From NCBI GenBank assembly GCA_038877255.1, contig JAVYWZ010000016.1, positions 1-17,188 of the forward strand: a stretch of DNA of 17,188 nt, given 5' to 3'. Position numbers and translations under genes: made by a program. The notes beneath the pieces were generated by a model. It worked only from the letters and a program-made list of their open reading frames with translations, did no database searches and was not told where the DNA came from. The DNA is from Candidatus Micrarchaeaceae archaeon (GTDB lineage Archaea; Micrarchaeota; Micrarchaeia; Micrarchaeales; CABMGC01). Of the stretch, positions 1-17,188 are shown piece after piece (position 1 is the first letter of the stretch; each line of letters begins with the position of its first letter).

Positions 1-2
1 CG

Positions 3-1739
3 GTGCTTTATAATAACATGCTTATATATGCAAACACTACGAATATTACAGCAGTAAATCCTATTAATGGCAAAACTGCGTTTACAACAAATTCAATAGG
101 AGGAACCTTGATATCAGGCTTGCTCATAACAACGCCACTGCTTGCTTATGATGGCAAGATAGTTTTTGGAACAAGCTCAGATAATGTATATGCGATTTAT
201 TCAGGCAACGGCACAGAGGCATGGAGTGTAAGTCTTGGCGCTGGCGAGCAGCCTCAGTTCCTAGCAGTTGCTGGTGGCAATCTTGCCGCAAAAACAACAT
301 CGGGAGAGCTTGCGCTGATTGGCACGCAAGGCACTGCTGCAGGCATCCTCTGGTCTAAGCCTTCACTTGGAACCAGCTCTGCAGTTTCAAGCATGCAAGA
401 CATTCTTTACTTCGGCAACGGCGATAATGTAAATGCTACATATACTAACGGAACCTCTGTGCCAGGGTTTCCTGGAGGAACGAGCCAAATAGTATACGCT
501 GTTGCACCTTATGGCTCTGTGATTTATTACCAACTGCAAAATGGCGTAATAGCAGTATCTACTACTGGCAGCGAGCGTTGGAGCATTTCTGTTCCCGGCT
601 CGTTTGGCAACGCAGTTACAGGCTCTTCTTCGCTCATTGCATCAAATAACTATTTGTATGCACTTTGGCAGAATGGCCTTGCCATAATAAACACAACAAC
701 GCACGGCTTCACGTTTGCGCGCCTGCCGTACTCGCCGATAAGCAATGAAAGCCTTGCTTATGGCAGACTTTACGTTGTAGCAAACAACAAAATAATAGCG
801 TTTGGCTCATGTCCTGCAAGTTCCGGCGAAAACGCATTTTATGCAAGTGCCACAATGTTTGCAAATGGCTACGCCAGCTGCGCTGATTCATTGCTAAACA
901 GCATTAAGACAACAGAAAATTATGACGTGTTTGTAAATAATACCTTCGGGCCTTCGATGTCAATTGCCAAGTTTAATGGCAACGACGCGTATGCAAAGGC
1001 GCAAAATGAGGCATGGCTAAATACGACACTTGTTACAGCTTCATTCTGGATTAACATAAGCGCATACCCTAGCGGCGCGGTAAGGGTACTAAGTTATGGC
1101 GACAACGACACTGCAACAGGCCATTACTCGGGCTGGTTCTTTGCGCTCAACTCCAGTGGCGTATTGCGGTTCTACATAATGAACGGAACTGCTCAGACTG
1201 CAGTTCCTACAGCGATGAAGCTTGCACTTAACAAATGGTACAACATAGTTGGACTTTATAACGGCTCATATCTAGGGCTTTATGTCAATGGCGTTATTGC
1301 ATCGCAAGTAGGCCAAAGAGTAGCGCCAAAGAAGATATCAACGTCTATTGTGCCCCCTGGCCCTCAAATAAACCTTACAATAGGCAGTGGCACACCAATA
1401 AGCAACGTATTCTTTAACGGCTACATTAGCAACGTTCAGATATATGCAAAGCCGTTGCCGCCTGTAAGCATTTCAGAACTTAACAATGAAGGCCTGCAGT
1501 CAGGGCCCGTTTCTAATTACTTAGTTTCCTGGTATCCACTGCAAGGAGATACTAATGATTACAGCAACTACAGCAATGCGGCATATCCTTATTACATTTC
1601 TTTTGTAAAGAATGGATACGTACCTGCTAGCTACGCTAGCGCTTATGAGATAAGCAGAGCCAGCATACCAATAGCAATTCTCAACTACACAACAGGCAAT
1701 GTAATGGTAGAAAGTGCGGGTGTATTTGCATGGCACTGA
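3..1739 (+). CDS. Secreted surface glycoprotein with PQQ-like (BamB-type) beta-propeller repeats and a LamG-like jellyroll domain; 5'-truncated by the window edge
   Basis: Propeller-blade repeats (GKIVFGTSSDNVYAIYSGNGTEAWS; GVIAVSTTGSERWS; LAYGRLYVVANNKIIAFG). LamG motifs (AKFNG, TASFWINI, NKWYNIVGLYNGSYLGLYVNG, FNGYISNVQIY, LVSWYPLQGDTNDYS). About 17 N-x-S/T sequons. The frame is open from the window start. Confidence 0.85.
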   Translation: MLYNNMLIYANTTNITAVNPINGKTAFTTNSIGGTLISGLLITTPLLAYDGKIVFGTSSDNVYAIYSGNGTEAWSVSLGAGEQPQFLAVAGGNLAAKTTSGELALIGTQGTAAGILWSKPSLGTSSAVSSMQDILYFGNGDNVNATYTNGTSVPGFPGGTSQIVYAVAPYGSVIYYQLQNGVIAVSTTGSERWSISVPGSFGNAVTGSSSLIASNNYLYALWQNGLAIINTTTHGFTFARLPYSPISNESLAYGRLYVVANNKIIAFGSCPASSGENAFYASATMFANGYASCADSLLNSIKTTENYDVFVNNTFGPSMSIAKFNGNDAYAKAQNEAWLNTTLVTASFWINISAYPSGAVRVLSYGDNDTATGHYSGWFFALNSSGVLRFYIMNGTAQTAVPTAMKLALNKWYNIVGLYNGSYLGLYVNGVIASQVGQRVAPKKISTSIVPPGPQINLTIGSGTPISNVFFNGYISNVQIYAKPLPPVSISELNNEGLQSGPVSNYLVSWYPLQGDTNDYSNYSNAAYPYYISFVKNGYVPASYASAYEISRASIPIAILNYTTGNVMVESAGVFAWH

Positions 1740-1756
1740 AACTCTTTACTATAAGT

Positions 1757-4318: not shown

Positions 4319-4337
4319 CACCAACTGCGCTTGGTGT
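4318..4337 (+). other. Stem-loop at the stop codon of the LamG gene (possible 3'-end/processing signal)
   Basis: ACACCAA-ctgcgc-TTGGTGT, a perfect 7-bp inverted repeat starting at the last base of TGA. Confidence 0.35.
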
Positions 4338-4667
4338 GCTCTTATTGCATGAGAATGTTTAACTCTGCGAGCGGATGTCACTTTGACTCGGCAAGCGCGT
4401 GAAGCGAGCAAATGAATATAAAAATAACAGGGATAAACATATGAGGAATTGCGTAAAATAGATTGGCATTATGTCCAATGCAGAAAAGAACGGCAGAATA
4501 GGAGAAAAAGGCAAGGCAACAATGGCAAAGCAAGCATTGCCGTTGAAGCGAGAAGCTCCAAACAAGCAGACGCGGTGGAAGCCCGGTCTGTAAGATCTGA
4601 GTAGTGCACTAATGTTGAAGCACTTCTCGGAGCGCAACAAAACTAAACCGCCATTCTTGTACTTGCA

Positions 4668-4715
4668 TTTTTGTTTTCTTGTTTCCTGTTTTTTTGTTTT
4701 CTTGTTTCCTTTTTT
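4668..4715 (+). terminator. Duplicated oligo-T tract, putative archaeal + strand terminator
   Basis: TTTTTGTTTTCTTGTTTCCT occurs twice (4668-4687, 4691-4710; period 23), followed by more T's, just before the converging TadC-like stop at 4739. Confidence 0.5.
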
Positions 4716-4738
4716 ACTCGGAACGTTTTAAGGTACTG

Positions 4739-5752
4739 TTATATCGCTGCTGTAGCGCCAGCTGCGCCGCCGCTTATCGAAGCGAATACGCCGCTTATCA
4801 CAAGCGACGTAATAAGAAACACGCCAAAGCCTATGAGCAGGAATAACGGCAAGTACCTTATTCCGCGAAGAATCGAACCTGATGAGATTGCGCTGACTAT
4901 TAAAGCTGCAAAGCCTGTTATCATTAACACCGCTGCAATTGCGAAGTTGTGATACATTGCTATTGTTATCTTTGGCGGACTCGGCCTGAGGAAAGAAACG
5001 CCGACTGTTGGCAAACCGCCTGGATTCGATTTTAGAATGCCAGCCCAAACAGTATCTGTAACGAAAATCATCTGGCTCGTTAGACCGTATAGCACTGGAG
5101 CGCCGACAAGAGCTGCAAACGCTATGAAAATTGTGTAGAGAAACAATTGCCCTGATATTTCCTTCTCTATTGTCTGCTGGGAGCGAAGGTCCTTTGCTAT
5201 CTGATTGAGCAGGTCAGTCATGCCTCCGCCGTATTGAATACCTTCAAGAATCATTCGTATCGTATGCTGCAGTTGCGTTGACCTGTAGCGCCTGCCCAGG
5301 TCCTGCAATGCCTGCTGGAGCGTCAGGCCAGCGTAAAGCGCTTTATCCATGTTTTTCACATCTTCGCTGAAATAACTAAATTCTGGCCTTGCAGCGACTA
5401 CAAGCGCTTTGTCTATTGCTATGCCGCTCCTTATATCAGCAGCCGCTATTTGCAGAAAGTCAGGCATTATCGATTCTACAAAGGTCTTGCGCTGCTCTAT
5501 CTTTGTCTCTAAAAGCGCATATATTATTATTGAAGGCACAGCAGCCGCTATAAGTCCAGCAATAGCAGAAAGCAGCACGTTTAACTTTAGCAACAAGAAT
5601 AGAGCGAAAGGCACAATTATAAGCAGGGCTATGCTGCTTATTATGACCTGTCTTAGGAACTTCTCAAGCGGTGTTTTTACTCCTGCCAACTTGAGCTCGT
5701 TTTCCACCAGTTCTACAACGCGCCTTGAAATAAGCCTTTCAAATTGAACCAT
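4739..5752 (-). CDS. Type IV pilus assembly platform protein, T2SSF family (TadC/ArlJ-like)
   Basis: T2SSF-like core (ESIMPDFLQIAAADIRSGIAIDKAL...GLTLQQALQDLGRRYRS...GGGMTDLLNQIAKDLR), several TM helices, located downstream of the pilus ATPase. Confidence 0.9.
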   Translation of the reverse strand: MVQFERLISRRVVELVENELKLAGVKTPLEKFLRQVIISSIALLIIVPFALFLLLKLNVLLSAIAGLIAAAVPSIIIYALLETKIEQRKTFVESIMPDFLQIAAADIRSGIAIDKALVVAARPEFSYFSEDVKNMDKALYAGLTLQQALQDLGRRYRSTQLQHTIRMILEGIQYGGGMTDLLNQIAKDLRSQQTIEKEISGQLFLYTIFIAFAALVGAPVLYGLTSQMIFVTDTVWAGILKSNPGGLPTVGVSFLRPSPPKITIAMYHNFAIAAVLMITGFAALIVSAISSGSILRGIRYLPLFLLIGFGVFLITSLVISGVFASISGGAAGATAAI

Positions 5753-5756
5753 TCTC

Positions 5757-6845
5757 TCACATTGTAAATACAGGCCTCGAGCTCCTCATTATGTTAAGGA
5801 ATATTATCTGCAGGAAGAAGATGCCTACAAGAGCGAAGAGCAGCAGAGTAGGCGTTACCGAAAAGATGTTTATGAAAGTTGTCAGTATCGCTGCAACTGC
5901 TATTCCCATACTTGGAAATATAACGCCGAAGAGCATGTAGAACATAGCAAGCGCGTTCAGCCTTTGGCCGTATCTTCTAAGCTCTATGACGCGCTCCTGC
6001 GTTACATCTTCTACAACGCCCTGCAGGGCGCCTGCCACATCGGCTCCTGCCTTTATGCTGACACTCGCCTGAAGCATTATTCTCTTGAACGACTTTGACT
6101 GGCTCTCCTCGCTTGCGCGGTCTATCGCCTGTTCTATTGGAACACCGAGCTGGACAAGCTCCACTATCTTTGCAAACTCCTTACTCGCTTCGCCATAGCC
6201 TGTGCTTACCGCAGCTATCGCGTTGAACAATGGCATGCCAGATCTTAAACTAACCACCATGTCTCTTGCTGCAAAGAGTATGTCACGCTCAACGCCCTTG
6301 CCTTGCTGCCTGCTTTTCTGCATAGGGAATTGCAGGAAGCGCTGGAAGAGCGCAGTGTAAATGGCATAGGCGAGCGCGAGGCTTAATACAATCCCTATAG
6401 CGCCGAGCCCGAAATGAATTAGCATAGCTGCTATCGCAACTGCAATTACTATTGTAACTATTATTGTGTTTATCAGCATGCGTTTTACGAACTCATATGC
6501 CGTTTCTTTGTTTCCTATCTCTCTAAGCGCAGGCTCGAGCTCCTTGTGCTTAAGAACAACCTTCGCTATATAAGTCTGAATGCTTGAAGGCTTCTTCTGC
6601 TGTTGCTGCATAATGCTAGGTGCTGCTTTTTGTTTTGTGACCTTATTTACTTGCCTATGAAAACTGCTAAATACGCTTGGCCTTTCAGTCTTTATCTTTA
6701 TTTTTGGAGGCTTTACCTTGACCTCTGAATACTCGTATATCGGTTTAGACCTTATTTTGAAAAAAAGGAAGCGCCTCTGCTTTGTATAGCCTATTGGCTT
6801 AGTGCCATTCGTGTCAATCGCCACAGGCTTCTTTTTAAACAGCAT
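5757..6845 (-). CDS. Type IV pilus assembly platform protein, T2SSF family (TadB/TadC-like), with basic N-terminal extension
   Basis: ERDILFAARDMVVSLRSGMPLFNAI...GYGEASKEFAKIVELVQLGVPIEQAI...GADVAGAL; C-terminal YMLFGVIFPSMG TM region; SD-like GAGGT upstream. Confidence 0.9.
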   Translation of the reverse strand: MLFKKKPVAIDTNGTKPIGYTKQRRFLFFKIRSKPIYEYSEVKVKPPKIKIKTERPSVFSSFHRQVNKVTKQKAAPSIMQQQQKKPSSIQTYIAKVVLKHKELEPALREIGNKETAYEFVKRMLINTIIVTIVIAVAIAAMLIHFGLGAIGIVLSLALAYAIYTALFQRFLQFPMQKSRQQGKGVERDILFAARDMVVSLRSGMPLFNAIAAVSTGYGEASKEFAKIVELVQLGVPIEQAIDRASEESQSKSFKRIMLQASVSIKAGADVAGALQGVVEDVTQERVIELRRYGQRLNALAMFYMLFGVIFPSMGIAVAAILTTFINIFSVTPTLLLFALVGIFFLQIIFLNIMRSSRPVFTM

Positions 6846-7545
6846 ATGTATTTACCTCATCAAAAACCTCTTTGAGCAAAGCATTCCTCAGCTCTGCAAG
6901 GTCGGTAGGTGCGGCATTCTGCTTGCCTTCAGCTATTAGCCTTGATAGCCCGTTAGCTTCTAGCTTTATTATCTTCAATTGCTCAGAGTTGAAAACATGC
7001 TCTTTCAAGCCTTCATCGATCTTTTCAAGGTCGCTTATTTGGTCGTTAAGCGACAGCGTTGGAAGCACCAAGCCCTTAAGCTGCCTTTGCTCACGCGCTT
7101 CGCTGAATGAGCGCCTTAGCGTACTGCCTGCTCCTGCTACGCTCTCGATTCTTTTGGCAGCTTCGTTAAGCTCTTTCTTAAACAGAATAGGCCTAGGCTT
7201 CGTCTGTTTTGCCTCTGCTTTTGCAGCTGCTTGAGCAGTTGCAATAGTTTGAGCCGTTAAAGATGATGGAGCGGGTGCAGAAGGTGTTGCTGACGCTGCT
7301 GCATACGGCGCACCTGTCATTGTTGGTTTTTCCTGTTCAATCGGCTGCGCCTGAGCCTGCGGTTGCTGTTCCTCTGATTTTTCATACTTGGCAAAGCCCA
7401 TAAGCTTAAGCGCTGAGCTATAATCGAGCGTCTTCACTTCAATACCTGGCATTATATCATCAGGGTTAACGACAAAGCTGCCCTGCTGCTGGGCACGGCT
7501 TTCCACGCTCTTTACCATATTCAAGGCTTCTTCATACGTGATCAT
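6835..7545 (-). CDS. Hypothetical cytoplasmic protein within the pilus operon (helical N- and C-domains joined by an Ala/Pro/Gln linker)
   Basis: 236-aa ORF; ATGA overlap with the ATPase stop and 11-nt overlap with the next gene; no TM segment or recognisable family. Confidence 0.8.
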   Translation of the reverse strand: MITYEEALNMVKSVESRAQQQGSFVVNPDDIMPGIEVKTLDYSSALKLMGFAKYEKSEEQQPQAQAQPIEQEKPTMTGAPYAAASATPSAPAPSSLTAQTIATAQAAAKAEAKQTKPRPILFKKELNEAAKRIESVAGAGSTLRRSFSEAREQRQLKGLVLPTLSLNDQISDLEKIDEGLKEHVFNSEQLKIIKLEANGLSRLIAEGKQNAAPTDLAELRNALLKEVFDEVNTYAV

Positions 7546-9074
7546 ATTGCACCCGATTTTAGCTTGTCAAACAGGTCCTGCGTGAACTTGGTGTTGCTGT
7601 TTGCAAAATCCACTATGCGCTCTTTGTTGCTGTAATAGGCAGAGATTATATATCCACAGGTGTCCACATCAGTAATGTTGTTATTTGTCATCCACGACAG
7701 AACTTTGGCCTTTTCCTTTATGTCGTTTTCAATCTCGCTCTGCGTGTAACCCGAATAAAGCGAGAGCACATCTGCAAGCCTAGACATAGCTGAAATTTTA
7801 GGAAAGACATCATTGCGCATATCCCAGCGGTATATTACATTTGCATCGCCGCTTCCGAGCATTTCTGCGAATTCTAGAACGCGCCTTATGCCGAGCCTTC
7901 TGTGCCTGAAAAGCACAACTATGCCACCAAATGCATTCAGCATTATTTTTGGCAGGTTTATAGGCGGATTAGACATGCGCACTATAGTATCTTGCGCATT
8001 ATCCGCATGGATGGTGCCGTATACAGCATGGCCTGTGTGTATTGCCTCGAAGAGCGTCTCGGCGTCTTTCTCAGTTCTTACCTCACCCACAAGCAGGAAA
8101 TCCGGCCTCTGCCTGAGTGCGTTTATCATAAGGTCATAAAGCGTCACTTCTCCTTTTCCTTCGGGGTTCGGCTGCCTTGTGAGCATGGGCACCCATTGCA
8201 GGAAAGAAGGCAGTGAAAGCTCCCTTGTTTCTTCTACAGATATTACTCTTCTGTTCATTGGAATGAAGATGCTCATCGCATTGAGGAAACTTGTCTTGCC
8301 GCTTGCTGTGCCGCCAGAGATGAGCATGCTCACCTCGTTCTGTATGTTAAGCCAAACATACGCGGCTATTTCAGGGGAGAGCGTGCCGTTTGCTATCATT
8401 GCCGGCATCGTCCACGGGTTCTTTCCGAACTTTCTTATTGTTATGGTGTTGCCAGTGTTTGATACAGGATAAAGGGTTGCGTTGACTCTTGATCCGTCAG
8501 GCAGCTCAGCGTCCATAAGCGGCGACAGGCTTGTTATCTGCCTTCCTACGCGCCTTCCTATCTGCTCTGAAATGTTGTATATTTCTTCCTCGTTTTCTAT
8601 GACAAGGTTTGTCTTGCACCAGCCGTACTTTTTATGGAATACCCATATTGGCTCTTTTGAGTTGTTTACTACAACCTCTTCAAGGTTATCATCAGCAAGA
8701 GGCAGCTCAAGGTCACCAAGCCCCAGCATCATGTTCAATATGTATGAAATCAGTATTTTTTTCTGCTCTGGTTGCACCGATGGCAGGTACTTATCAAGCA
8801 GCACAGATGAAGCCTGTATGTACTTGTTTGTCAGCTCGTCCATATATTCCTTGTCCTCTATGCGCGATGGGTCTATTGGGACCATTCCAAGAAGCTCTGA
8901 CCTCAGCGATAGAAGAAGTATGCGCGTGGCTTTGCCAAGGCCTGGCACTTCAACAGCGTAGCTTGGAACCGATCCACCAACGTCTTCAATGCTTACCTTT
9001 ACAGGCAAGCCGTGCGCATCAAGTTCATACTGCGCGTATATTTTTCTGTTTGCTTTCTCATCCTCTTCGGTCAT
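7542..9074 (-). CDS. Type II/IV secretion system ATPase (VirB11/TadA/CpaF family; archaeal pilus assembly ATPase)
   Basis: Walker A GGTASGKT, Asp box SVEETREL, Walker B ALRQRPDFLLVGEVR, His box HTGHAVYGTIHA, and DAELPDGSRVNAT/TITIRKF motifs. Confidence 0.95.
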   Translation of the reverse strand: MTEEDEKANRKIYAQYELDAHGLPVKVSIEDVGGSVPSYAVEVPGLGKATRILLLSLRSELLGMVPIDPSRIEDKEYMDELTNKYIQASSVLLDKYLPSVQPEQKKILISYILNMMLGLGDLELPLADDNLEEVVVNNSKEPIWVFHKKYGWCKTNLVIENEEEIYNISEQIGRRVGRQITSLSPLMDAELPDGSRVNATLYPVSNTGNTITIRKFGKNPWTMPAMIANGTLSPEIAAYVWLNIQNEVSMLISGGTASGKTSFLNAMSIFIPMNRRVISVEETRELSLPSFLQWVPMLTRQPNPEGKGEVTLYDLMINALRQRPDFLLVGEVRTEKDAETLFEAIHTGHAVYGTIHADNAQDTIVRMSNPPINLPKIMLNAFGGIVVLFRHRRLGIRRVLEFAEMLGSGDANVIYRWDMRNDVFPKISAMSRLADVLSLYSGYTQSEIENDIKEKAKVLSWMTNNNITDVDTCGYIISAYYSNKERIVDFANSNTKFTQDLFDKLKSGAI

Positions 9075-9083
9075 GACATCATG

Positions 9084-10307
9084 CTACTTGCCTCCAAGGC
9101 GTTTTGTCTTGTCGCTTATCTCATCACTTTTCTTTTTCAAGTTCTTTGAACGTGTTGCTATGCCTTTCAGCTTTGACTCTATCTCATTGAGCTCGCTGAC
9201 CTTCTTTCCTGTGCTTTCGTCTTTCAATGCGTTGAGCGATTCGAGCTGAAGCGAAAGCTGCTTGAGCTCGTTGGCAAGCTCGTTCTTCTCAGCTTCTGCG
9301 CTTACTATTCCTTTATTTATCTCATCGAGCATGTCGCTGAGCTTTGCTATTTCAGGGAACTTGCTTTTAATATCTAGAAGCGTTGCTGAGAGAGCGTCTG
9401 CTGCCTTCCTGGCTGCGCCGTAAATCGCCTGAGCCTGCTGCTCAGTTTTCGCAGCCTCGTCAATAAGACGCTTGGACTCCGAATCAATATTTCTCTTTAC
9501 CGATTGTGCCTCTTTTGAATAGTTTACCACTGCAGAATTGTAATCTGAAATTTCGTTCTTTAAGTGGCTTACAAACGAGTCAAGCAATTTTGCCTCTCTC
9601 CTTATATCCTCGTCAAGCTCCAGGAAGCGCTTGCGCTGCTCATTAAGCTGCTTTTCGAACGCCGCGTGCATCTCTTCAAGCTCGCGCATGCCCATGACTA
9701 TCTTTGCGTTCATGTCATCTACAAGGCGTTGAGCGTCTGCTGCGCCTGAGCCTTTTACAAGCGAGTCAAGCGCTGCCGCCTTCTCGTTAAGTGAGGCTAT
9801 TCCAGCATCAAGCTCTGATTTAAGCTTCGAAACGAATTCGACGCTTGAGCTTATATTGCCCTGCACCTTGTTAAGCTCATCATTATATGCGTTTATGTTA
9901 TCCATTACCTGCTTTATGTCTCCGGCACGCTCCTTATAAACACGGCTTACCTCACCAATGTATTTCTTGAACTGATCTATCTGCTCAGCAATATCGTTAA
10001 GCTGCCTTGTCTGCGCCACTATGTTATTTTCGACCACGCCCTGCCTTTCGACTACGCTGCTTCTTATTGCTGCTTCTTCTTCAGGAGTAGCGGCCGCCTT
10101 TGAAACATACATGCGGCCTACTTTGTAGCTTATGTGCACTATGTTTGACTTTTCTAGGACGTTTGCCCAAGTCTCAATTATAGGTTCAGTAACGTTTAAA
10201 TCCTTTGCAAGAGTAAGCGAATCTGTTTCACCATGATCTTCGAGATATTTGACTAGGTCATCTATGCTTGTAGTTACTGATTGCCCTGTTGAATGTTGGT
10301 CGGCCAT
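9084..10307 (-). CDS. Protein with N-terminal winged-helix-like domain and a long coiled coil
   Basis: N-terminal TSIDDLVKYLEDHGETDSLTLAKDLNVTEPIIETWANVLEKSNIVHISY fits an HTH+wing pattern; the remaining ~320 aa are charged and heptad-rich; no Walker motifs. Confidence 0.75.
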   Translation of the reverse strand: MADQHSTGQSVTTSIDDLVKYLEDHGETDSLTLAKDLNVTEPIIETWANVLEKSNIVHISYKVGRMYVSKAAATPEEEAAIRSSVVERQGVVENNIVAQTRQLNDIAEQIDQFKKYIGEVSRVYKERAGDIKQVMDNINAYNDELNKVQGNISSSVEFVSKLKSELDAGIASLNEKAAALDSLVKGSGAADAQRLVDDMNAKIVMGMRELEEMHAAFEKQLNEQRKRFLELDEDIRREAKLLDSFVSHLKNEISDYNSAVVNYSKEAQSVKRNIDSESKRLIDEAAKTEQQAQAIYGAARKAADALSATLLDIKSKFPEIAKLSDMLDEINKGIVSAEAEKNELANELKQLSLQLESLNALKDESTGKKVSELNEIESKLKGIATRSKNLKKKSDEISDKTKRLGGK

Positions 10308-10329
10308 CAGGATAAATTAGATTAAAAAG

Positions 10330-10345
10330 TTTATTATGCTTTCGC
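10330..10345 (-). promoter_or_regulatory. Putative BRE/TATA promoter of the pilus operon
   Basis: The - strand reads GCGAAAGC-ATAATAAA, with the AT box ~23-30 nt upstream of ATG 10307, consistent with a leaderless archaeal transcript. Confidence 0.35.
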
Positions 10346-10359
10346 AATGCCGCAGCGTA

Positions 10360-11082
10360 TCAGTATTTCGACACTATGTACGACGCGATTTCGTCGCCTA
10401 TCGCGGCCTCTGGAAGTATTATGCGCCTAGCGCCTGCGCGCTCCAGCTTTGGTATGTCATCTATACGCCTCGCCCTCGAGATCACGCTGCATCTATCATT
10501 TTCGCTCTTTGCAGCGATTGCTATAAAGACGTTTTTAATGTCTTCTTCATAAAGAGAAAAAAGAGTAAAGGCATTGTTTATCTTGGCTTCGCGCAAGGTA
10601 GCGCTTTCAGAGGCATCACCCGCTATCGCTATGTTGCCTGAGTGTATTGCTTGCCTTACCTTCTGTCTGTCATAGTCCACAAGCACATAATCAATTCCAT
10701 TCTCTGAAAGGCGCTTTGCAAGTTCAAGGCTCATGCCATTTATTGGCGTTATTATAACATGCTCGCGCAGGCGCTTCGCCCTCTGCTTTGCCAGCCATTC
10801 TGAAATGCTCTTGTTGCTAAGCACCTGGTAGAAAATCGATGTAAAAAGAATAGTAAGCACTATGCTTCCTATTATGCCAACTACCAGAGAGTAGAATACG
10901 AAGGGGTTTGCCGCATCTATGAGCTTCGGCGAAGGCGGAAACGTTGCGCCTATAATATTTACAAAGCCGAAGATCAATGCATATGCAGCGTTGTGCACGG
11001 CGAAATAGGCAAACAAGGCAGAAATGGCAAACAGCGATAGCAGAATAAGAACAGAAAGCATATGCACTATTCTGAGTCTCAC
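10360..11082 (-). CDS. Two-TM K+-channel-like membrane protein with C-terminal TrkA-N/RCK domain, lacking the GYG filter
   Basis: TM1, a pore-like segment (YALIFGFVNIIGATFPP) and TM2, then an RCK fold (EHVII, YVLVDYD, GDASESATLREAKI, ISRAR...LERAGARRIILPE). GxGxxG is replaced by TPINGMS. Confidence 0.8.
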   Translation of the reverse strand: MRLRIVHMLSVLILLSLFAISALFAYFAVHNAAYALIFGFVNIIGATFPPSPKLIDAANPFVFYSLVVGIIGSIVLTILFTSIFYQVLSNKSISEWLAKQRAKRLREHVIITPINGMSLELAKRLSENGIDYVLVDYDRQKVRQAIHSGNIAIAGDASESATLREAKINNAFTLFSLYEEDIKNVFIAIAAKSENDRCSVISRARRIDDIPKLERAGARRIILPEAAIGDEIASYIVSKY

Positions 11083-11876
11083 TGAACCATGCCTCTTATG
11101 CTTTTCCTTATGAACTCGCCTATCTCTAGGCCAGCTAAGTGCTCTGGTATTACTGCCATATCTGCTCCTGCTATGTAGATCTTCTTCCTTGTGTGCTCGT
11201 CCTTCAGCCTTGAAACAATCTTTATATTAGGGTTAAGTTTCTTTGCCACAAGCGTACCAAGTGCGTTGTCGGCATCGTCTTCGGAAGCAAACACAATCGC
11301 CTTCGCCTTGCCTATGTTTGCACGCAGGAGCGAACGCTCGTCAGTGAAATCAAGAGCAAGATTGACTGTGTGCTTTGCATTGAGCTCGTTGTTTATCTCG
11401 GCTTGCTGAATAATCACAAGAGATTTTACCTTCTTTGAGGCAAGGCGCTCAATCAGTTGTTCTGCGAGCTCGTTGTAGCCGCAAATAATAACATGATTTT
11501 TCAGCAACTTTGCTCTTGTCTCGTTGATCAGCTCTTCTATGTTGGCAGAGCCCAATAGGTCTATTACCGCAGCTAGTATAAAGCTCGTTACAAGTATGCG
11601 GCTTAGGTTGTCAATGACTACAACTATAAAGATTATGCTGAATATCATTGTTCCAGAAGAAAAAGCGATAGTTGCCAGAGCAGATGATGCTGCAGTGTTT
11701 TGTGCATCGAAGAATGCGTCGAGAACAAAATAGGAGTCAAGATATGTATTCTTTGTGATAAACAAAAGAGCAAAAAAAGATATGAGCAAGATTGCAACTA
11801 CTATGAGTACTGAAAGAACCATTATGTTGAATGTGTCAGTGCCAAAGGCAACAGCACTTTTTTTCTCAGAATACAT
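11079..11876 (-). CDS. Two-TM K+-channel-like membrane protein with C-terminal TrkA-N/RCK domain, lacking the GYG filter
   Basis: TM1, a pore-helix-like segment (YLDSYFVLDAFFDAQN) and TM2, then RCK (KNHVIICGYNELAE, DFTDERSLLRANI, DDADN...AKKLNPNIKIVSR, AGADMAVIPE). ATGA overlap with the downstream gene. Confidence 0.8.
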   Translation of the reverse strand: MYSEKKSAVAFGTDTFNIMVLSVLIVVAILLISFFALLFITKNTYLDSYFVLDAFFDAQNTAASSALATIAFSSGTMIFSIIFIVVVIDNLSRILVTSFILAAVIDLLGSANIEELINETRAKLLKNHVIICGYNELAEQLIERLASKKVKSLVIIQQAEINNELNAKHTVNLALDFTDERSLLRANIGKAKAIVFASEDDADNALGTLVAKKLNPNIKIVSRLKDEHTRKKIYIAGADMAVIPEHLAGLEIGEFIRKSIRGMVQ

Positions 11877-12302
11877 TTACATGCCCTTTGTAAGCTCTCT
11901 AAACAGCTCTTCGCTCGCTGACTTGTTTGGCGTAGCTATGAATCCTGCGCCTGCCTCTTTGAGCTTGTTCCTGACAAGCTCTGTGTTTGCCCTTGTTGCA
12001 ATAATTATTTTACTGTTCAGACTTTTTGCTGTTATAAGTATGAATAGATTCTTTGCATCGTCGTCTGTGGCGATTGCAATCGCTTTGGCACGCTCTATTC
12101 CTGCTTCTTTCAGCACCTTTGAGTATGTGGCGTCGCCAAAAACAACGTTAATGCCTTTCTCTTTAAGGGTGTCCGCCTTGACCTTGTCCATTTCTATCAC
12201 TACAAAGTTTATGCCGGATTGCTGAAGCAACTCTACAATCTTCTCGCCTACTAAGCCGTAGCCGCAAACGATGACATGGTTGCTGAGCTGCTGTAATGCC
12301 AT
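11877..12302 (-). CDS. Stand-alone soluble TrkA-N/RCK (KtrA/TrkA-like) nucleotide-binding protein, 141 aa
   Basis: Intact GxGxxG (HVIVCGYGLVG), FVVIE, GDAT...LKEAGIERA, DDAKNL...AKSLN...IIATRA. Start moved from the ORF-track 12443 to ATG 12302, which has a TATA-like box at the expected distance. Confidence 0.9.
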   Translation of the reverse strand: MALQQLSNHVIVCGYGLVGEKIVELLQQSGINFVVIEMDKVKADTLKEKGINVVFGDATYSKVLKEAGIERAKAIAIATDDDAKNLFILITAKSLNSKIIIATRANTELVRNKLKEAGAGFIATPNKSASEELFRELTKGM

Positions 12303-12323
12303 GCTTAGATATGAATAAACAAG

Positions 12324-12338
12324 CATAAAAAGATTATT
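12324..12338 (-). promoter_or_regulatory. Putative TATA box for the RCK cluster
   Basis: The - strand reads AATAATC-TTTTTATG, with the T/A box at -29..-22 from ATG 12302. Confidence 0.5.
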
Positions 12339-12432
12339 AATGAAGTTGCGCGGAAGCAACACGCACATAGCACATAAATGACAAAGCAAAATGCCGAACG
12401 AACGCAGAGCATAAGAAGTGTTGTTTAGAAAT

Positions 12433-12461
12433 TGTGCCTGCACTAGATAGCTTCAGGCACA
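12433..12461 (-). terminator. Stem-loop just after the ABC permease stop (possible terminator or 3' stabiliser)
   Basis: TGTGCCTG-13 nt-CAGGCACA, a perfect 8-bp inverted repeat 17 nt past the stop at 12479. Confidence 0.4.
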
Positions 12462-12478
12462 GCAGAGTCAGATATGCG

Positions 12479-13774
12479 CTATTCTGACCTTAATGCCGCT
12501 ATGGGGTCTATGGTTGAAGCCTTCCATGCAGGGTAGATGCTTGCTACCACGCTTACAATTATGGCTATGGCCAGCGAAGCTATTATCACTGTCGGACTTA
12601 TCACTGGGGTAAAGGAAAGAGAGGAAAGGGAGCTTGATGACGGGCCTGCTGCAACTGCCCCTGGCCCGCCTGCGTAGAAGCTGCCACCCGCATGGCCAGA
12701 TGCTACAGTAGGCGTTACAGACGTGCTTGCTCTGGATCCAACACCAAGCAGACTTGGCAGTGCAAAGGAAACTGCTGAACCTGCGGCTATGCCTATGACG
12801 CCGCCGGCAAGGCCTATTATGACAGCTTCGGAAAGGAAGAGCATCATCACATCGCCCTTCTTGAAGCCTATTGACTTAAGTATGCCTATCTCGTGAGTGC
12901 GCTCAGCTACAGAAACCATCATTATGCTCAGTATGCTTATTCCTGCGACAAGCAGTGAAATTCCGGCAATGCCGCCAAGCAAAAGTCCCAATGAGCCTAC
13001 TATTGACGAAACAGTAGCGGCCATTTCCTGCACAGAGATTATTCTTGCATTGCTGCCATATATGTCTGTGAGCAGGGTATCAAGCGAATTGACGACGCTT
13101 GTGTTCTTTGCCTTTACAAGGAGTGCGCTGTATGAATACTTGCTCGTAAGACTCTCAGCAGCCTGCAACGAAATAAATATAGAAGAGTCTGGAGAAACGA
13201 AAGCAGACGAGCCGTATCTGTCAAGTATGCCCACAGGCACGAGGGTGATAGTTTTGCTCGTTCCAAACATGCGTGCAGTCAGATATATGGGCTGGTCGAC
13301 GCGCACATACTGCTGCGATCCTGAATTCGGGAATGCGACGTCGTATCCTACCAATGCGTAAGGCATGTCTGTGTTGTTGTATGCTGCACCGGCATAGACA
13401 TTTATGCTGCCGATGGCCTCTGCAAGGCTATAGTTTGCAATGCCGTAAACTGTCACTGTTGTCGAGGTTCCTGCTTCTGACATATTTCCGCTGAATGAGA
13501 CTATTGGCGTGACGTTTGAGACATACGGCAGCGAGTCTATCTCTGCTATGTCTGCATCGGTCAGTATGAGTTGCCCGGCTGGTAGCATGTAAAGAGTAGT
13601 AGGCCCTGTCGATTCGAGGGCATTTGATATGCTAGCTGATATGCCTGAAACCAAAGATATCAGCGCCACTATTGCCGATATGCCTATGACTATGGTAAGT
13701 ATGGTGAGCGCGGTCCTAAGCCTGCGCTCCGCAATCCCCTTTATGCCGAGCGAGAAGAGATCCTTTATCTTCAC
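12479..13774 (-). CDS. ABC transporter permease, MacB/FtsX (LolE-like) family
   Basis: RRLRTALTILTIVIGISAIVAL TM1, large extracellular domain, IAGISLLVAGISILSIMMVSVAERTHEIGILKSIG, and YPAWKASTIDPIAALRSE C-terminus; GTGA overlap with the upstream gene. Confidence 0.95.
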   Translation of the reverse strand: MKIKDLFSLGIKGIAERRLRTALTILTIVIGISAIVALISLVSGISASISNALESTGPTTLYMLPAGQLILTDADIAEIDSLPYVSNVTPIVSFSGNMSEAGTSTTVTVYGIANYSLAEAIGSINVYAGAAYNNTDMPYALVGYDVAFPNSGSQQYVRVDQPIYLTARMFGTSKTITLVPVGILDRYGSSAFVSPDSSIFISLQAAESLTSKYSYSALLVKAKNTSVVNSLDTLLTDIYGSNARIISVQEMAATVSSIVGSLGLLLGGIAGISLLVAGISILSIMMVSVAERTHEIGILKSIGFKKGDVMMLFLSEAVIIGLAGGVIGIAAGSAVSFALPSLLGVGSRASTSVTPTVASGHAGGSFYAGGPGAVAAGPSSSSLSSLSFTPVISPTVIIASLAIAIIVSVVASIYPAWKASTIDPIAALRSE

Positions 13775-15423
13775 TTGCGCACCTTGTGCTTCCTTTTTGC
13801 GTAGGCATAGTATGCCACTATGGCAACTACAACAACAATTATTATAGCTATAATAGCCAACGCACTGCCTGAGGACGACTTCCTAACGGGATAGCTGCCA
13901 GTGCCTGTTGTGACATGTGCGCCGCTTCCAGCACCGCCATATGCTGTGGCGTTGCCGCTGCCTACGTCAACGCTGAAAACGAAGCTTGCATTGAGAGGCT
14001 GGTTGAGATTGTTCAGATATGATATCTTTACAGGTATATCATAAATGCCCGGCTTTGCAGACGGCAAAGGCATGAATGTGAGCGTGAATGCTGTAGGCGT
14101 ATCAATAGGTATTGTGCCTATGAAAGAGGTATTCTCGCCAACTATGCTTATGCCCTTTGGTGGATATGAGGTAATGCTTGCAGCAACTGCAGATTCTGAC
14201 CCTATGTTGTCTATAGTAGAAGTAAGCGTGAATATCTCTCCTGCAATGGGCTTTGCAGGCAGTATTGACGTGCTCACGTCTGTAAGATTTATATAGCCCG
14301 GAGTGAGAAAAGCCATGCTGTATGTCGAGGTCTGCACCTGGCCGTTGAGCGTATATGTAAGCGACGCACCTAGAGTGTCGACATCAGAGCTTGACGATGC
14401 CTGGGAATAAAAGCTTGCAGGCAGCTCAACCTTTGAATTGGCAGGTATGAAATTGAGCACATAGCTGCTTTTGCCTATCAGGTCGAGCGGAGACTGCGGA
14501 CTCAGAGTCAGCGATATGTTGTACAGGGGCATATTTCCGCCGTTTGATATTATGATGCTGTCGTTCCACAGCTTTCCTGCGACTATAGTCAGGCTTGATG
14601 GGTATACAGAAACGTTCTGCTGCAGCGGAGAAGTGTACATGCCAATGCTTGTGCTCGTGCTAGTGTTGACGCCGTACGGGCTTATGTAGTTCGAATCAAG
14701 CGTAAGCGTCAGCGGAGCACTGCCACTGCTCGGCGCTAGATAAAGCAGGGCACTTATATTTTGGCTGGTTCCAGGATAAAGCATGCCGACTTTGCCTGGC
14801 TGGCGCAGCACGCTGAACCCCGAAGAGGGCTCTATGTAAGTCGAGACGCCTGAAACAGCGCCACTGCCCGTGTTTGCCAATTTAATTGTTAAGTTGTTGA
14901 GCCCCGGATAAAGCACGCTCTTTTCAGGTGTATAAGTTATGTTTGGCAGGCCGTGCATTGGTATTTCAACATTGACAACCTGGTTGTTCCTGGTAGTACT
15001 GTTGGTGTAGTTATAGTATATGTAAAGGGAATAGCTGCTTGTCGCATTCGGCCCAGCAGAGACATTCTTGGCGACATTCAGATAGAACACCATGTCGAAC
15101 ATTTCTGATGGAGCGATCTGATTCAGATAATCAGTGGCATAGGCAGAGCCGTTGAAATTAGAATAACCCCCGTAAAGCTGCAACTGCCCTTCCACATTTG
15201 TTATACTACATATTGTGCCTGTGATAGTAGGGAAGCTTTCGAGCTGCACAGTCAGCGGCACGTCAGTGCTCCCTGGCCCTACTGAAATCATGTGCGTTGA
15301 ATTGCCCCACATGGCATTAAGCACCTTGAAGCTTATGCCGGATGTGGAGCACGATGACGCGCCTGCAATGCCTATCTGCAGCAGGCCAAATATTATCAAG
15401 ACCGCATATATGCCAATTTTCAT
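13771..15423 (-). CDS. COG1361-like (S-layer domain/CARDB Ig-like repeat) membrane-anchored surface glycoprotein
   Basis: Signal peptide; repeated Ig-like units (LTIKLANTGSG, IIISNGGN, TSTIDNIGSE; PGIYDIPVKISY); many sequons; C-terminal TM plus basic tail (KRKHKVRK). Lies between ABC ATPase and permease, a known archaeal arrangement. Confidence 0.8.
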   Translation of the reverse strand: MKIGIYAVLIIFGLLQIGIAGASSCSTSGISFKVLNAMWGNSTHMISVGPGSTDVPLTVQLESFPTITGTICSITNVEGQLQLYGGYSNFNGSAYATDYLNQIAPSEMFDMVFYLNVAKNVSAGPNATSSYSLYIYYNYTNSTTRNNQVVNVEIPMHGLPNITYTPEKSVLYPGLNNLTIKLANTGSGAVSGVSTYIEPSSGFSVLRQPGKVGMLYPGTSQNISALLYLAPSSGSAPLTLTLDSNYISPYGVNTSTSTSIGMYTSPLQQNVSVYPSSLTIVAGKLWNDSIIISNGGNMPLYNISLTLSPQSPLDLIGKSSYVLNFIPANSKVELPASFYSQASSSSDVDTLGASLTYTLNGQVQTSTYSMAFLTPGYINLTDVSTSILPAKPIAGEIFTLTSTIDNIGSESAVAASITSYPPKGISIVGENTSFIGTIPIDTPTAFTLTFMPLPSAKPGIYDIPVKISYLNNLNQPLNASFVFSVDVGSGNATAYGGAGSGAHVTTGTGSYPVRKSSSGSALAIIAIIIVVVVAIVAYYAYAKRKHKVRK

Positions 15424-15424
15424 A

Positions 15425-16120
15425 TTACTTTACCTCTTTTTCAACAAGGCCGTCCCTTATGTATACGCGCCTATCAGCAAGCTTAGCAAGATCCGGATCA
15501 TGAGTCGCCATCAATATTGTAGTGTTGTTCTCCTTACCAATCCTCATGAGCAGGTTCATTACCTCCTTAGACGTGGCAGAATCCAAGTTTCCTGTGGGCT
15601 CATCAGCAAGCAGTAACGGCGGGTTGTTTATTATGGCCCTGACAATGGCGACGCGCTGCTGCTCTCCGCCGCTCAGCTCCCTCGGCTTCTTCTCGAACTT
15701 GCCGCCCAAACCAACCTCATTAAGGCGCTGTGCAGCAAGCTCCTTGTGCTGCTCATCATCTGCTCCGTAAAGCATAAGCGGAAGCATCACGTTGTCAAGC
15801 ACATTAAGGTAGGGCACGAGATTATATGATTGGAAGACGAAGCCTATCTTCCTGTTCCTTATTTCTGAAAGCTGCCTGTCATTAAGCCGCGAAACCTCGG
15901 TGCCATCTATTAGGACCCTGCCTTTGGTCGGCCTATCCAACGTGCCAATGATGTCAAGCAACGTGGTCTTGCCACTTCCGGAAGGGCCGAGTACTGCAAC
16001 GAACTCGCCGCTTCTCACAGCAAGCGATATGTCTCTTATTGCCACATACTCTACCTCTTTAGACTTGTAAATCTTGCTTATATGCTCGACAAGTATTGGA
16101 TTTTTTGCTTTAGCGCTCAT
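15425..16120 (-). CDS. ABC transporter ATP-binding protein, LolD/MacB-like family
   Basis: Walker A GPSGSGKT, Q-loop IGFVFQSYNL, signature LSGGEQQR, Walker B/D-loop LLADEPTGNLD, H-loop ATHD. ATG 16120 has an SD-like GGTG; the ORF-track start is 16141. Confidence 0.95.
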   Translation of the reverse strand: MSAKAKNPILVEHISKIYKSKEVEYVAIRDISLAVRSGEFVAVLGPSGSGKTTLLDIIGTLDRPTKGRVLIDGTEVSRLNDRQLSEIRNRKIGFVFQSYNLVPYLNVLDNVMLPLMLYGADDEQHKELAAQRLNEVGLGGKFEKKPRELSGGEQQRVAIVRAIINNPPLLLADEPTGNLDSATSKEVMNLLMRIGKENNTTILMATHDPDLAKLADRRVYIRDGLVEKEVK

Positions 16121-16149
16121 TGCCACACCGGAACCAAACACTGCTTAGG

Positions 16150-16160
16150 TATTAAATTTA
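16150..16160 (-). promoter_or_regulatory. Putative TATA box of the ABC operon
   Basis: The - strand reads TAAATTTAATA, ~30-40 nt upstream of ATG 16120. Confidence 0.35.
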
Positions 16161-16337
16161 TGATATATGCTGTGTTAACAGCTTTAAAGATTGCCAAATC
16201 TTTCGCTTTTGCAGAAATAAAGGCATACTGCAAAAATTGGCTCGAAACTGACGGCTCTAAATGAAGGAGCCTGCATAAAGAGGTCAGGCTGCGGCAGGCT
16301 CTATTTTATTTTGCGTCATATATGGAATCCATAATCC

Positions 16338-16544
16338 TCAATGAGCGTCTCGCCTAGGTTCCCTAGGCAAAGCCCTTCTTTTTTTGGCGTACAAAATATC
16401 GAGAAATCTCTTCTGCCCTTTGCTCCAGGTCCTGTTGTCAGTCTTTTTTACATAATTGGAATATGCATCAATATACTCGAAATTATTTCTAAGATTGAGT
16501 TTTTTTGCCTCCTTCAAGCCAGTTAGAATGCTATTTTTTCCCAT
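16338..16544 (-). CDS. Small basic helical protein, probable partner of the adjacent nucleotidyltransferase
   Basis: 68 aa; start overlaps the NTase stop by 14 nt; same low GC. The FEYIDAYSNYVKKTDNRTWSKGQ pattern resembles small archaeal proteins I recall beside such NTases (not verified). Confidence 0.65.
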   Translation of the reverse strand: MGKNSILTGLKEAKKLNLRNNFEYIDAYSNYVKKTDNRTWSKGQKRFLDILYAKKRRALPREPRRDAH

Positions 16545-17151
16545 CTAATTCGCCCAGTACTTTCCTTGCAATTTTTTTTACATGAAATTCTGATAAAAAT
16601 CCATTTAATTTCTTGACATCAATATAGGCCTTAAAAATGTTATAAATGTATCGTGCATCTTCGTAATCCTTATCGCTGCCCAGCCACAATTTGAACGCGA
16701 TTTGTAGTTCTATCGGAGATATGTACATCGAGTATTTGCCGTTAAATATAATTTTTATTTTGTTGTCCATAGTATGCCTGTCAAGAGGTTTCTTGACGAA
16801 TTTTAGCTCAAAATTAGGTGCCCAAGTTCCTTTCTCAGCGTATCTGAGAGAGGATCCTTCAGAAAGTAACTCGTATGCCTCTTTGGCATTTTCTACGTTA
16901 TTTACAGGTTCAAATCCGCTTTTGAGAAGCCTTTCGTGTAAGTCTTTGATTTGTTTCATGTCCATTTTGTTTATTAGTATATCAATGTCTTCCGTGCCTC
17001 TTATCCTTCCAAAAAAGATTGCTATGTAACCGCTAACTATTACGTAATCGACGTTGCCCATAGCCGCAATAAACTTAATGACTAATTTGTCTAAAGTGGT
17101 AATTTCTTTTTGGTTAAGTATTATGTTGCTTTTAGAGAATCTGATTTCCAT
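16531..17151 (-). CDS. Pol-beta-superfamily nucleotidyltransferase (AbiEii/DUF6036-like)
   Basis: YVIVSGYIAIFFGRIRGTEDIDILI (hG...R.T.DxD catalytic motif) and C-terminal SPIELQIAFKL.LGSDKDYEDA (K...KD..D). Confidence 0.8.
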   Translation of the reverse strand: MEIRFSKSNIILNQKEITTLDKLVIKFIAAMGNVDYVIVSGYIAIFFGRIRGTEDIDILINKMDMKQIKDLHERLLKSGFEPVNNVENAKEAYELLSEGSSLRYAEKGTWAPNFELKFVKKPLDRHTMDNKIKIIFNGKYSMYISPIELQIAFKLWLGSDKDYEDARYIYNIFKAYIDVKKLNGFLSEFHVKKIARKVLGELDGKK

Positions 17152-17173
17152 AACTGATTATAGCAATTATAAG

Positions 17174-17181
17174 ATATTAAA
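17174..17181 (-). promoter_or_regulatory. Putative TATA box of the NTase pair
   Basis: The - strand reads TTTAATAT at -30..-23 from ATG 17151. Confidence 0.5.
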
Positions 17182-17188
17182 TACTAGC

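Follow-up and report, generated by a model that had tools for sequence, protein, structure and literature searches.

What do three adjacent genes for regulator of K+ conductance (RCK) domains encode when two of them also carry a K+-channel-like pore region from which the selectivity filter is missing? The question is raised by a stretch of 17,188 nucleotides (nt) from Candidatus Micrarchaeaceae archaeon (assembly GCA_038877255.1, contig JAVYWZ010000016.1, positions 1-17,188), referred to here as the window, whose genome spans 713 kb in 30 contigs and is 92% complete. On its reverse strand, a gene for a soluble RCK protein (C) is followed by genes for two pore-type subunits (B and then A), each with two transmembrane helices (TM1 and TM2) around the pore region. 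The features of this C-B-A triad are as follows.

11877..12302, reverse strand: gene C, soluble N-lobe-only RCK of 141 amino acids with an ATG start, an intact GxGxxG and a strand 2 ending in an acidic residue (Pfam TrkA_N, E 4.7e-31)
12246..12263, reverse strand: codons of the C nucleotide loop GYGLVG, C residues 14-19, read directly from the sequence and kept in all C orthologues
11874..11879, reverse strand: stop codon TAA of C abutting start codon ATG of B, read directly from the sequence
11079..11876, reverse strand: gene B, pore-type subunit of 265 amino acids (TM1, pore helix, loop, extra helix, TM2) with an RCK N-lobe lacking GxGxxG (TrkA_N, E 3.8e-22)
11697..11729, reverse strand: end of the B pore helix and loop, FVLDAFFDAQN, B residues 50-60, in place of the filter, the loop (56-60) following the predicted pore helix 44-55
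11463..11483, reverse strand: B loop CGYNELA, occupying the GxGxxG position, B residues 132-138, from sequence and alignment
11079..11082, reverse strand: GTGA overlap of the B stop codon TGA and the A start codon GTG, read directly from the sequence
10360..11082, reverse strand: gene A, paralogous pore-type subunit of 240 amino acids (TM1, pore helix, loop, TM2) with a GTG start and an RCK N-lobe lacking GxGxxG (TrkA_N, E 8.4e-21)
10933..10965, reverse strand: end of the A pore helix and loop, FVNIIGATFPP, A residues 40-50, replacing the TVGYG filter when aligned to TxxTVGYG of MthK-like channels
10729..10749, reverse strand: A loop TPINGMS, occupying the GxGxxG position, A residues 112-118, from sequence and alignment

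The answer that we favor, with our confidence evenly balanced, is that the operon encodes one membrane complex, a heteromeric tetrameric RCK-gated P-loop cation channel of MthK/GsuK-type descent whose gating ring is completed by C.

A first-pass annotation, made from the sequence alone, had described A and B as two coupled paralogues with an MthK-like layout, and this was borne out by the gene junctions, the AlphaFold models and the structural matches to MthK and GsuK. A and B are paralogous (BLASTP E 1e-14, 26% identity over 177 residues), with a profile-profile probability of 99.8% over nearly their full length and of 95.7% for the TM parts. Each chain carries one Pfam TrkA_N domain (residues 114-224 in A and 129-244 in B), and phmmer aligned residues 21-229 of A with residues 35-236 of MthK. 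The model of A (28-row alignment; predicted local distance difference test score, pLDDT, 84) comprised helices at residues 2-29 and 32-44, a loop at 45-51, a short helix at 52-55, a helix at 60-90, a linker and a Rossmann fold, while that of B (39 rows, pLDDT 81) comprised helices at 6-41 and 44-55, a loop at 56-60, an extra helix at 61-73, a helix at 76-110 and the RCK. Both models contain a pore helix within a TM1-pore helix-TM2 fold, with the RCK fused after the inner helix. When compared with the PDB using Foldseek, full-length MthK and GsuK ranked first for both models, and the alignments to full-length MthK spanned 230-250 columns (top matches MthK 6oly, E 2e-10, for A, and MthK 8djb_A, E 3e-10 over 248 columns, for B). 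Full-length profiles matched MthK-like channels with probabilities of 99.7% (A) and 99.9% (B), the TM-only profile of B did so with 93.9%, a few RCK columns at its edge included, and an Atlas structure search with residues 1-105 of A retrieved Kch-type pores. We conclude that A and B both descend from the pores of two-TM (2TM) K+ channels, and that B is the more diverged of the two.

A search of 5.8 billion proteins yielded 40 proteins of the B type and 28 of the A type, with identities of 41-100% and from Micrarchaeota wherever a source was named; after these came a gap in identity, and the next matches were MthK-like channels at about 25-35%. The TrkA_N matches, the paralogy of A and B and the dozens of orthologues mark the three frames as genuine genes that did not arise by chance. 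Public labels of the triad proteins read 'NAD-binding protein', 'potassium channel family protein' or 'voltage-gated potassium channel', and no description of the C-B-A triad was found in the literature that we searched. The triad is best filed as a variant of the RCK-gated P-loop channel superfamily that is previously undescribed as far as that literature shows.

The arrangement of the three genes proved to be strictly kept. Twenty-two triad loci came from a collection of species-representative genomes, and further loci were fetched from families f2 (20 loci) and f1 (6 loci, one of them cut by a contig end; the third gene of G200 became visible after more DNA had been read). The order C-B-A was found in all 22 of the former, three of which contain frame breaks, as well as in the 20 further f2 and 6 further f1 loci. 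Across 46 triads, the median gap was 6 nt between C and B and 0 nt between B and A, with 5 nt or less between B and A in 40 of the 46, and neither loss of A alone nor loss of B alone was seen among the loci examined. The unit is conserved in every Micrarchaeota locus examined, in two families, and order-wide in Micrarchaeota. The possibility raised in the first-pass annotation, that the triad might not be conserved or might match a characterized family, found no support. Because the order was kept in every locus examined, A and B are not regarded as decayed copies.

The pore loops were compared in 44 A-lineage and 46 B-lineage proteins collected from these loci together with 46 triad C proteins; loci L022, L024 and L025, which have broken frames, were excluded from the A/B protein set and from the RCK tree described below. 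As initially noted, neither A nor B has a TxGYG filter, the equivalent segments reading FVNIIGATFPP and FVLDAFFDAQN, and orthologues with an intact filter did not turn up either, since none of the 44 A-lineage or 46 B-lineage proteins has G[YFL]G in its pore region. The register of the B loop relative to TVGYG is uncertain, as MAFFT and hhalign place TVGYG over residues 63-67 and the loop of the model lies at 56-60. In the core clade, that is, the window's own clade, with 20 sequences each for A and B, the pore loop was the most conserved segment of both subunits (A: pore loop 0.72, RCK 0.65, pore helix 0.58, TM1 0.50; B, as column identity: pore loop 0.92, pore helix 0.79, RCK 0.63, TM1 0.57). 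N42, G45, A46, F48 and P50 of A were invariant across 28 orthologues, and the most persistent loop residue of B was Asp-57, present in 37 of the 46 B-lineage proteins. Family f2 has other loops, roughly WNxLxSLxIxY in the A lineage and YYTLSALFDAxG in the B lineage, and the A and B loop types shift together clade by clade, which fits a shared structure and equally common descent alone.

These data bear on the idea that A and B are what is left of a decaying K+ channel operon. Decay would explain why both subunits lack the GYG filter and the Gly loop and why 3 of 22 related loci have broken frames. However, most loci by far have intact frames, the proteins align over their full length at 40-75% identity, the loops are conserved, and the genes strictly keep their order and coupling; that the pore loop is the best-conserved segment in the core clade is the opposite of what decay would lead one to expect. 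Decay is already contradicted by the conservation data, and we give it next to no credence. The comparison instead supports an absence of GYG that is ancestral and conserved.

Two tree rows (L067 and L060) that carried 'GYG' labels were rejected as artefacts of a crude string test, the GYG lying outside the pore region. Further non-canonical 2TM-RCK families were also encountered (L056-L063; P0060-P0067), none of them recognized by Ion_trans_2. Some from Micrarchaeota have Cys-rich or Glu-rich loops, and other archaeal proteins among them carry STITTIG(L/I)Y or SFATHIEPG in the place of TVGYG.

The three RCK domains differ in their nucleotide loops. The degenerate TPINGMS and CGYNELA of A and B, which the first-pass annotation had set against the intact GYGLVG of C, were confirmed, and the pattern held across the orthologue sets: GxGxxG was present in 46/46 C, 0/44 A and 0/46 B proteins. 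A motif (T/V)P(I/Y/F)N was retained instead across the A lineage and CGY(N/S) across the B lineage, and MthK-like relatives also carry a degenerate loop, CGYNQLV, in the alignment. Strand 2 ends in Asp or Glu in 45 of the 46 triad C proteins. From these residues, we infer that C is the sole member of the triad able to bind nucleotide in a classical Rossmann site. Degenerate Gly loops are frequent among channel RCKs, so the RCKs of A and B may still bind other ligands, and the outsourcing of ligand sensing to C proposed in the first-pass annotation is at most a possibility. No match to the C-lobe family TrkA_C (PF02080) was obtained for A, B or C with Pfam at E up to 1, and the alignments of A and B stop where the C-lobes of MthK-like channels start. 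The closest solved relative of C was the second RCK of GsuK (E 1e-20), a channel for which PDB entries with NAD and with ADP bound exist according to their titles; its first RCK, adjoining the pore, also lacks the Gly loop in the phmmer alignment. By analogy, the triad resembles a GsuK whose second RCK has been split off, or an MthK whose free RCK has become a separate gene. An alternative 188-amino-acid GTG frame exists for C, with an N-terminal extension that is absent from the orthologues in the alignment; because these begin within a few residues of the ATG, the longer frame is unsupported.

The origin of the triad was examined in a tree of 158 RCK domains (quick search, short-match rows excluded), with branch support from the Shimodaira-Hasegawa-like approximate likelihood ratio test (SH-aLRT). 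The RCKs of A and B formed sister clades (SH-aLRT 96; A clade 99, B clade 84) and the triad C proteins a single clade (98), with far shorter branches in C (0.035 versus 0.12-0.14 for the window's proteins). Judged by this topology, A and B arose by one duplication. Family f6 has a two-gene form in which a soluble RCK is accompanied by one 2TM-RCK protein (L034:1310-2487, L052 and L053) in which GxGxxG is intact and the pore helix near-canonical (LYWTAATIFSVPGF); the RCKs of this pair group as sisters close to the C clade. Loci L054 and L055 were also listed with this form. A two-gene form like that of f6 was probably the ancestral state of the triad. Because of the tree topology and this two-gene form, a likely order of events is that a channel gene with a separately encoded RCK copy came first, that the channel gene was then duplicated to give A and B, and that the Gly loops were subsequently lost and the pore loops diverged.

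Paralogues that are always linked suggest a heteromer. For the A2B2 multimer check proposed in the first-pass annotation, the TM parts of two copies each of A (residues 1-105) and B (residues 1-125) were used as input with their own alignments. The assembly scored well above its best control, with an interaction prediction score from aligned errors (ipSAE) of 0.45 versus 0.00, but the support that it lends is weak: the three runs gave 0.45, 0.28 and 0.59, and although the ipSAE mark used was reached by 116 of 157 solved complexes and by 2 of 215 mismatches, both passing mismatches, along with 18 of those 157 complexes, lie at 0.60 or under. The runs shared at least 86% of contacts, and partner pLDDT was at least 63. 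Co-assembly of A and B is thus backed by a weak complex prediction and by indirect genomic signs, namely linkage, gene overlap, loop covariation and asymmetric divergence.

The genes could alternatively give rise to two separate homotetramers, A4 and B4, which are co-expressed, unmixed, and share the soluble C. MthK and GsuK, the 2TM-RCK channels among the PDB matches, are homotetrameric, and the f6 pair of a soluble RCK and a single 2TM-RCK implies that a version with one subunit works alone. Against this stand the observations that A and B never occur singly in the loci examined, that genes B and A overlap or adjoin in most triads, that the two pore loops shift together between clades and that the mixed tetramer scored, weakly, above controls. 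These counterpoints leave room for homomers, and we consider the arrangement unlikely.

In the heteromeric channel that we favor, the pore would be formed by the two paralogous subunits A and B, probably in a 2:2 ratio, and the separately encoded C would complete the cytoplasmic RCK ring, so that two A, two B and four C would contribute eight RCK domains. C would bind nucleotide and couple the energy or redox state of the cell to gating via the RCKs tethered to the inner helices. Since the pore loops of A and B are not K+ filters, selectivity is expected to be non-canonical, the channel being either K+-permeable yet poorly selective or tuned to another cation. The complex could plausibly handle cation (K+) uptake or homeostasis in this genome, because it is the only recognizable K+-channel-like system there. 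An argument that C replaces an MthK-style internal start, as no internal Met is available, was dropped: a linker Met occurs in 22/44 A and 18/46 B orthologues, and the linkers of the window's own A and B have none. A stronger claim, which we put forward tentatively and hold to be doubtful, is that the triad is the first obligate heterotetrameric prokaryotic P-loop channel, with differing, co-evolving non-K+ loops, one of them bearing an Asp like that of the plant channel CASTOR (see below), and with a three-paralogue RCK ring in which the free RCK alone binds nucleotide.

The genomic setting shows how far the cells might depend on the triad. A profile search of the whole genome found TrkA_N domains in these three proteins only and no match to Ion_trans_2, TrkH (PF02386), Kup or KdpA in the 92%-complete assembly. 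TrkH was likewise missing from all 41 genomes surveyed in the window's own family (0/41), in line with the earlier remark that the four-repeat Ktr/Trk membrane subunit is absent. A lone Na_H_Exchanger gene of the cation/proton antiporter (CPA) type lies on contig 10 of G000 (10189-11331; L026), a 416-amino-acid frame without an RCK of its own. Among the 41 family genomes, 18 had the triad only, 20 an Ion_trans_2 channel only, 2 both (one of them through a weak 23.5-bit Ion_trans_2 match) and 1 neither. This near-exclusivity of the triad and GYG channels is consistent with functional replacement, although the relatives are not independent and the pattern may reflect very few events. Stand-alone channels of about 250 amino acids, with a 2TM pore, TVGYGD and an N-lobe RCK, occur in sister genera (L027:1465-2208, L030:1438-2187, also L028 and L029); because they share just 18-21% identity with A and B, they are not orthologues of these. 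Many genomes hold two copies of the stand-alone channel on different contigs. Open reading frames of 134-164 amino acids with weak Ion_trans_2 scores of 22-25 bits were also noted (G197:C27:531-734, and similar ones in G178, G165, G098, G104, G087 and G072); they may constitute a separate minimal pore-like family.

Several results weigh against a heteromeric cation channel, some of them touching the pore itself. The profile check suggested in the first-pass annotation found TrkA_N in A, B and C and no Ion_trans_2 in A or B with Pfam at E up to 1. The TM-only profile of A matched MthK-like channels with a probability of just 54%, and the Atlas structure search retrieved no channel fold for the TM part of B. 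When the TM-only profile of B was run against 1.84 billion representatives, it returned 41 proteins, all of B type or fragments, with no canonical channel among them; those with names were labeled 'voltage-gated potassium channel' or 'NAD-binding protein', and one bore a Marsarchaeota label. Outside the core clade, the A-lineage loop was the least conserved segment, with an identity of 0.34, unlike a conserved selective filter. As for co-assembly, fused B-A or A-C proteins were not found, a search of proteins of 421-2000 amino acids yielding 8 weak matches that were all generic RCKs. The A2B2 prediction is weak and blind to the difference between hetero- and homotetramers, and its pass may reflect mere likeness, because K-channel tetramers have already been solved. 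Finally, with regard to K+, CorA and MgtE were absent from the genome in the profile search, and because they are missing too, the argument that the triad is the only candidate does not point to K+ in particular. Of 56 genomes of the sister family f2, 27 had both systems, 24 the triad only, 4 a canonical channel only and 1 neither, by comparison of two genome lists and with four weak Ion_trans_2 matches among the 27. Because 27 of 56 f2 genomes hold the triad together with Ion_trans_2, it is not simply a replacement. The triad supplies something that most of these cells keep, and about half have it as their sole K+-channel-like protein, which leaves the ion unfixed.

Some of these points would also suit a non-conducting, membrane-anchored RCK assembly, in which the former pore serves as a tetramerization and membrane anchor and the ring senses nucleotides and regulates, for example, the CPA-type antiporter on contig 10. 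The loss of the filter in both A and B, the wide variation of the pore loops across families, the TM part of B that matched no channel in the Atlas and the presence of one Na_H_Exchanger gene without its own RCK are all in keeping with such a role. An anchor would nevertheless have no need for a pore loop that is the most constrained segment of both subunits in the core clade, and the antiporter lies on a separate contig, unlinked, while the triad alone forms the conserved unit. We regard this role as distinctly unlikely.

A further alternative is that the triad forms an RCK-gated channel selective for divalent cations (Ca2+ or Mg2+), analogous to CASTOR/POLLUX/DMI1, with the Asp of B as selectivity site. 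According to PMC6697748, CASTOR has a predicted filter ADS(A)GNHA, is highly Ca2+-selective and loses its current upon the substitution D265N, and it thereby provides a precedent for an RCK-ring channel without TVGYG. These plant proteins are RCK-gated P-loop channels, as is proposed for the triad, that lack TVGYG and have an Asp in the predicted filter (PMC6697748). They differ in being eukaryotic nuclear proteins whose chains each have four TM segments and two RCKs, and they are homomeric, in contrast to the heteromer proposed here. The B sequence FDAQNTA has 4 of 7 residues (D, A, N and A) in common with the CASTOR motif quoted in PMC6697748, a comparison of seven residues that was unaligned, may be due to chance and serves as a lead only. 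The persistence of Asp-57 across 37 of 46 B-lineage proteins and the missing CorA and MgtE would agree with divalent selectivity. On the other hand, no match to Castor_Poll_mid (PF06241) was found in A, B or C with Pfam at E up to 1, the Asp would be present in just two of four subunits, and genomes with the triad only would have no recognizable K+ pathway. A divalent-selective channel seems very unlikely.

The sequences around the triad offered a candidate promoter and several neighbors of narrower distribution.

12325..12331, reverse strand: TTTTTAT box, 23-29 nt upstream of the C ATG, from visual reading of 60-nt upstream stretches

A TTTTTAT(G/T) box, usually TTTTTATGCTTGC, was found 20-50 nt upstream of C in 13 core-clade loci (12303-12360 in the window; L004-L023 stretches). 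Given the general architecture of archaeal promoters, it probably serves the operon as a TATA element. The gene upstream of the triad varies among loci. The 3' end of an apparent tRNA gene lies directly upstream of C in L036, L049 and L068, and partly in L010 and L016. In the window, the upstream neighbor is an ATP-binding cassette (ABC) exporter set of the MacB/FtsX type (12479-16141, reverse strand), with an ATPase (15425-16141), a permease (12479-13774) and a Ser/Thr-rich surface protein of 550 amino acids with a weak CARDB match; such a set adjoins the triad in one related locus only. Directly downstream of A is a type-IV-pilus/archaellum-like assembly cluster (4739-10307, reverse strand), encoding a coiled-coil protein of 407 amino acids, a T2SSE/FlaI-like ATPase of 510, a protein of 236 without a Pfam family and two T2SSF-like membrane proteins. 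The coiled-coil protein follows A in 22/22 core loci and the FlaI-like ATPase in 21/22, while the downstream sequence of five f2 genomes and one f6 genome contained nothing similar. Because this synteny is confined to the core clade, the cluster was rejected as part of the unit and treated as local synteny. At the start of the window (3-4318, forward strand) are two proteins with LamG/ConA-like lectin domains, of 578 (open at the window start) and 862 amino acids, which are probably surface adhesins.

To our knowledge, the characterized prokaryotic relatives of K+ channels are homotetramers or single-chain pseudo-tetramers, and they serve as the structural reference for gating and selectivity. 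If the stronger claim made above is true, the triad would be a living example of the passage from a symmetric 2TM channel to an asymmetric pore, a step assumed at the origin of the Trk/Ktr/HKT transporters and of four-domain channels, and it would be the only K+-channel-like cation pathway in many Micrarchaeota. A heteromer would offer a compact system, of about 650 residues per protomer set, for studying selectivity and gating in asymmetric pores; with a split ring, it would in addition give insight into how RCK rings share ligand sensing among their members and show how ultra-small symbiotic archaea without any recognized K+ uptake system handle cations. There would also be consequences for annotation. 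In PMC10134863, trkA matches in DPANN archaea are read as Trk/Ktr K+ uptake, and a heteromeric pore would be a caution that labels such as 'trkA' or 'potassium channel' in surveys of this kind rest on proteins of unassigned selectivity. PMC8561730 mentions a potassium channel in two metagenome-assembled genomes, and PMC12699388 treats archaeal RCK proteins.

Set beside known systems, the triad works most like an RCK-gated channel of the MthK/GsuK type; it lacks the filter and the profile match of a canonical K+ channel as well as the TrkH-type subunit of a Ktr/Trk system. The best structural match for either subunit is MthK, the Ca2+-gated K+ channel of Methanothermobacter (1lnq, 6oly, 8djb), in which a C-terminal RCK likewise follows the inner helix of a 2TM pore. 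It is a homotetramer with TVGYG and with an RCK C-lobe (TrkA_C), and the extra untethered RCKs needed for its eight-RCK ring come from an internal start of the same gene. The triad, in contrast, has two pore paralogues, no GYG and N-lobe-only RCKs, and its soluble RCK comes from a gene of its own, which is much more conserved and has kept the nucleotide loop intact. In GsuK, the multi-ligand-gated K+ channel of Geobacter (4gx0-4gx5, 4gvl), the combination of a loop-less RCK next to the pore and a second RCK with the loop recalls the triad, but GsuK carries both RCKs on a single polypeptide, forms a homotetrameric pore and shows Pfam-type K+ channel features, whereas the second RCK of the triad is a separate protein and its pore loops are non-canonical.

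KtrAB and TrkAH have a soluble nucleotide-binding RCK encoded beside the membrane subunit, and degenerate, non-identical P-loops. They share with the triad the separate soluble GxGxxG RCK, as which C qualifies by sequence, but their membrane subunit is a single chain of four M-P-M repeats (Pfam TrkH) without a fused RCK, and KtrA and TrkA have C-lobes where C has none. A further comparison is with the stand-alone channels L027-L030 of the same organism family, which at about 250 amino acids, with a 2TM pore and an N-lobe RCK with a degenerate Gly loop, are built like A and B; unlike these, they have TVGYGD, are recognized by Ion_trans_2 (E 1e-18 to 7e-19) and have no paralogue or soluble RCK alongside. 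What sets the triad apart from all of these systems is its combination of obligatorily linked pore paralogues, clade-specific and locally constrained pore loops, N-lobe-only RCKs and a separate, conserved RCK of the nucleotide-binding type.

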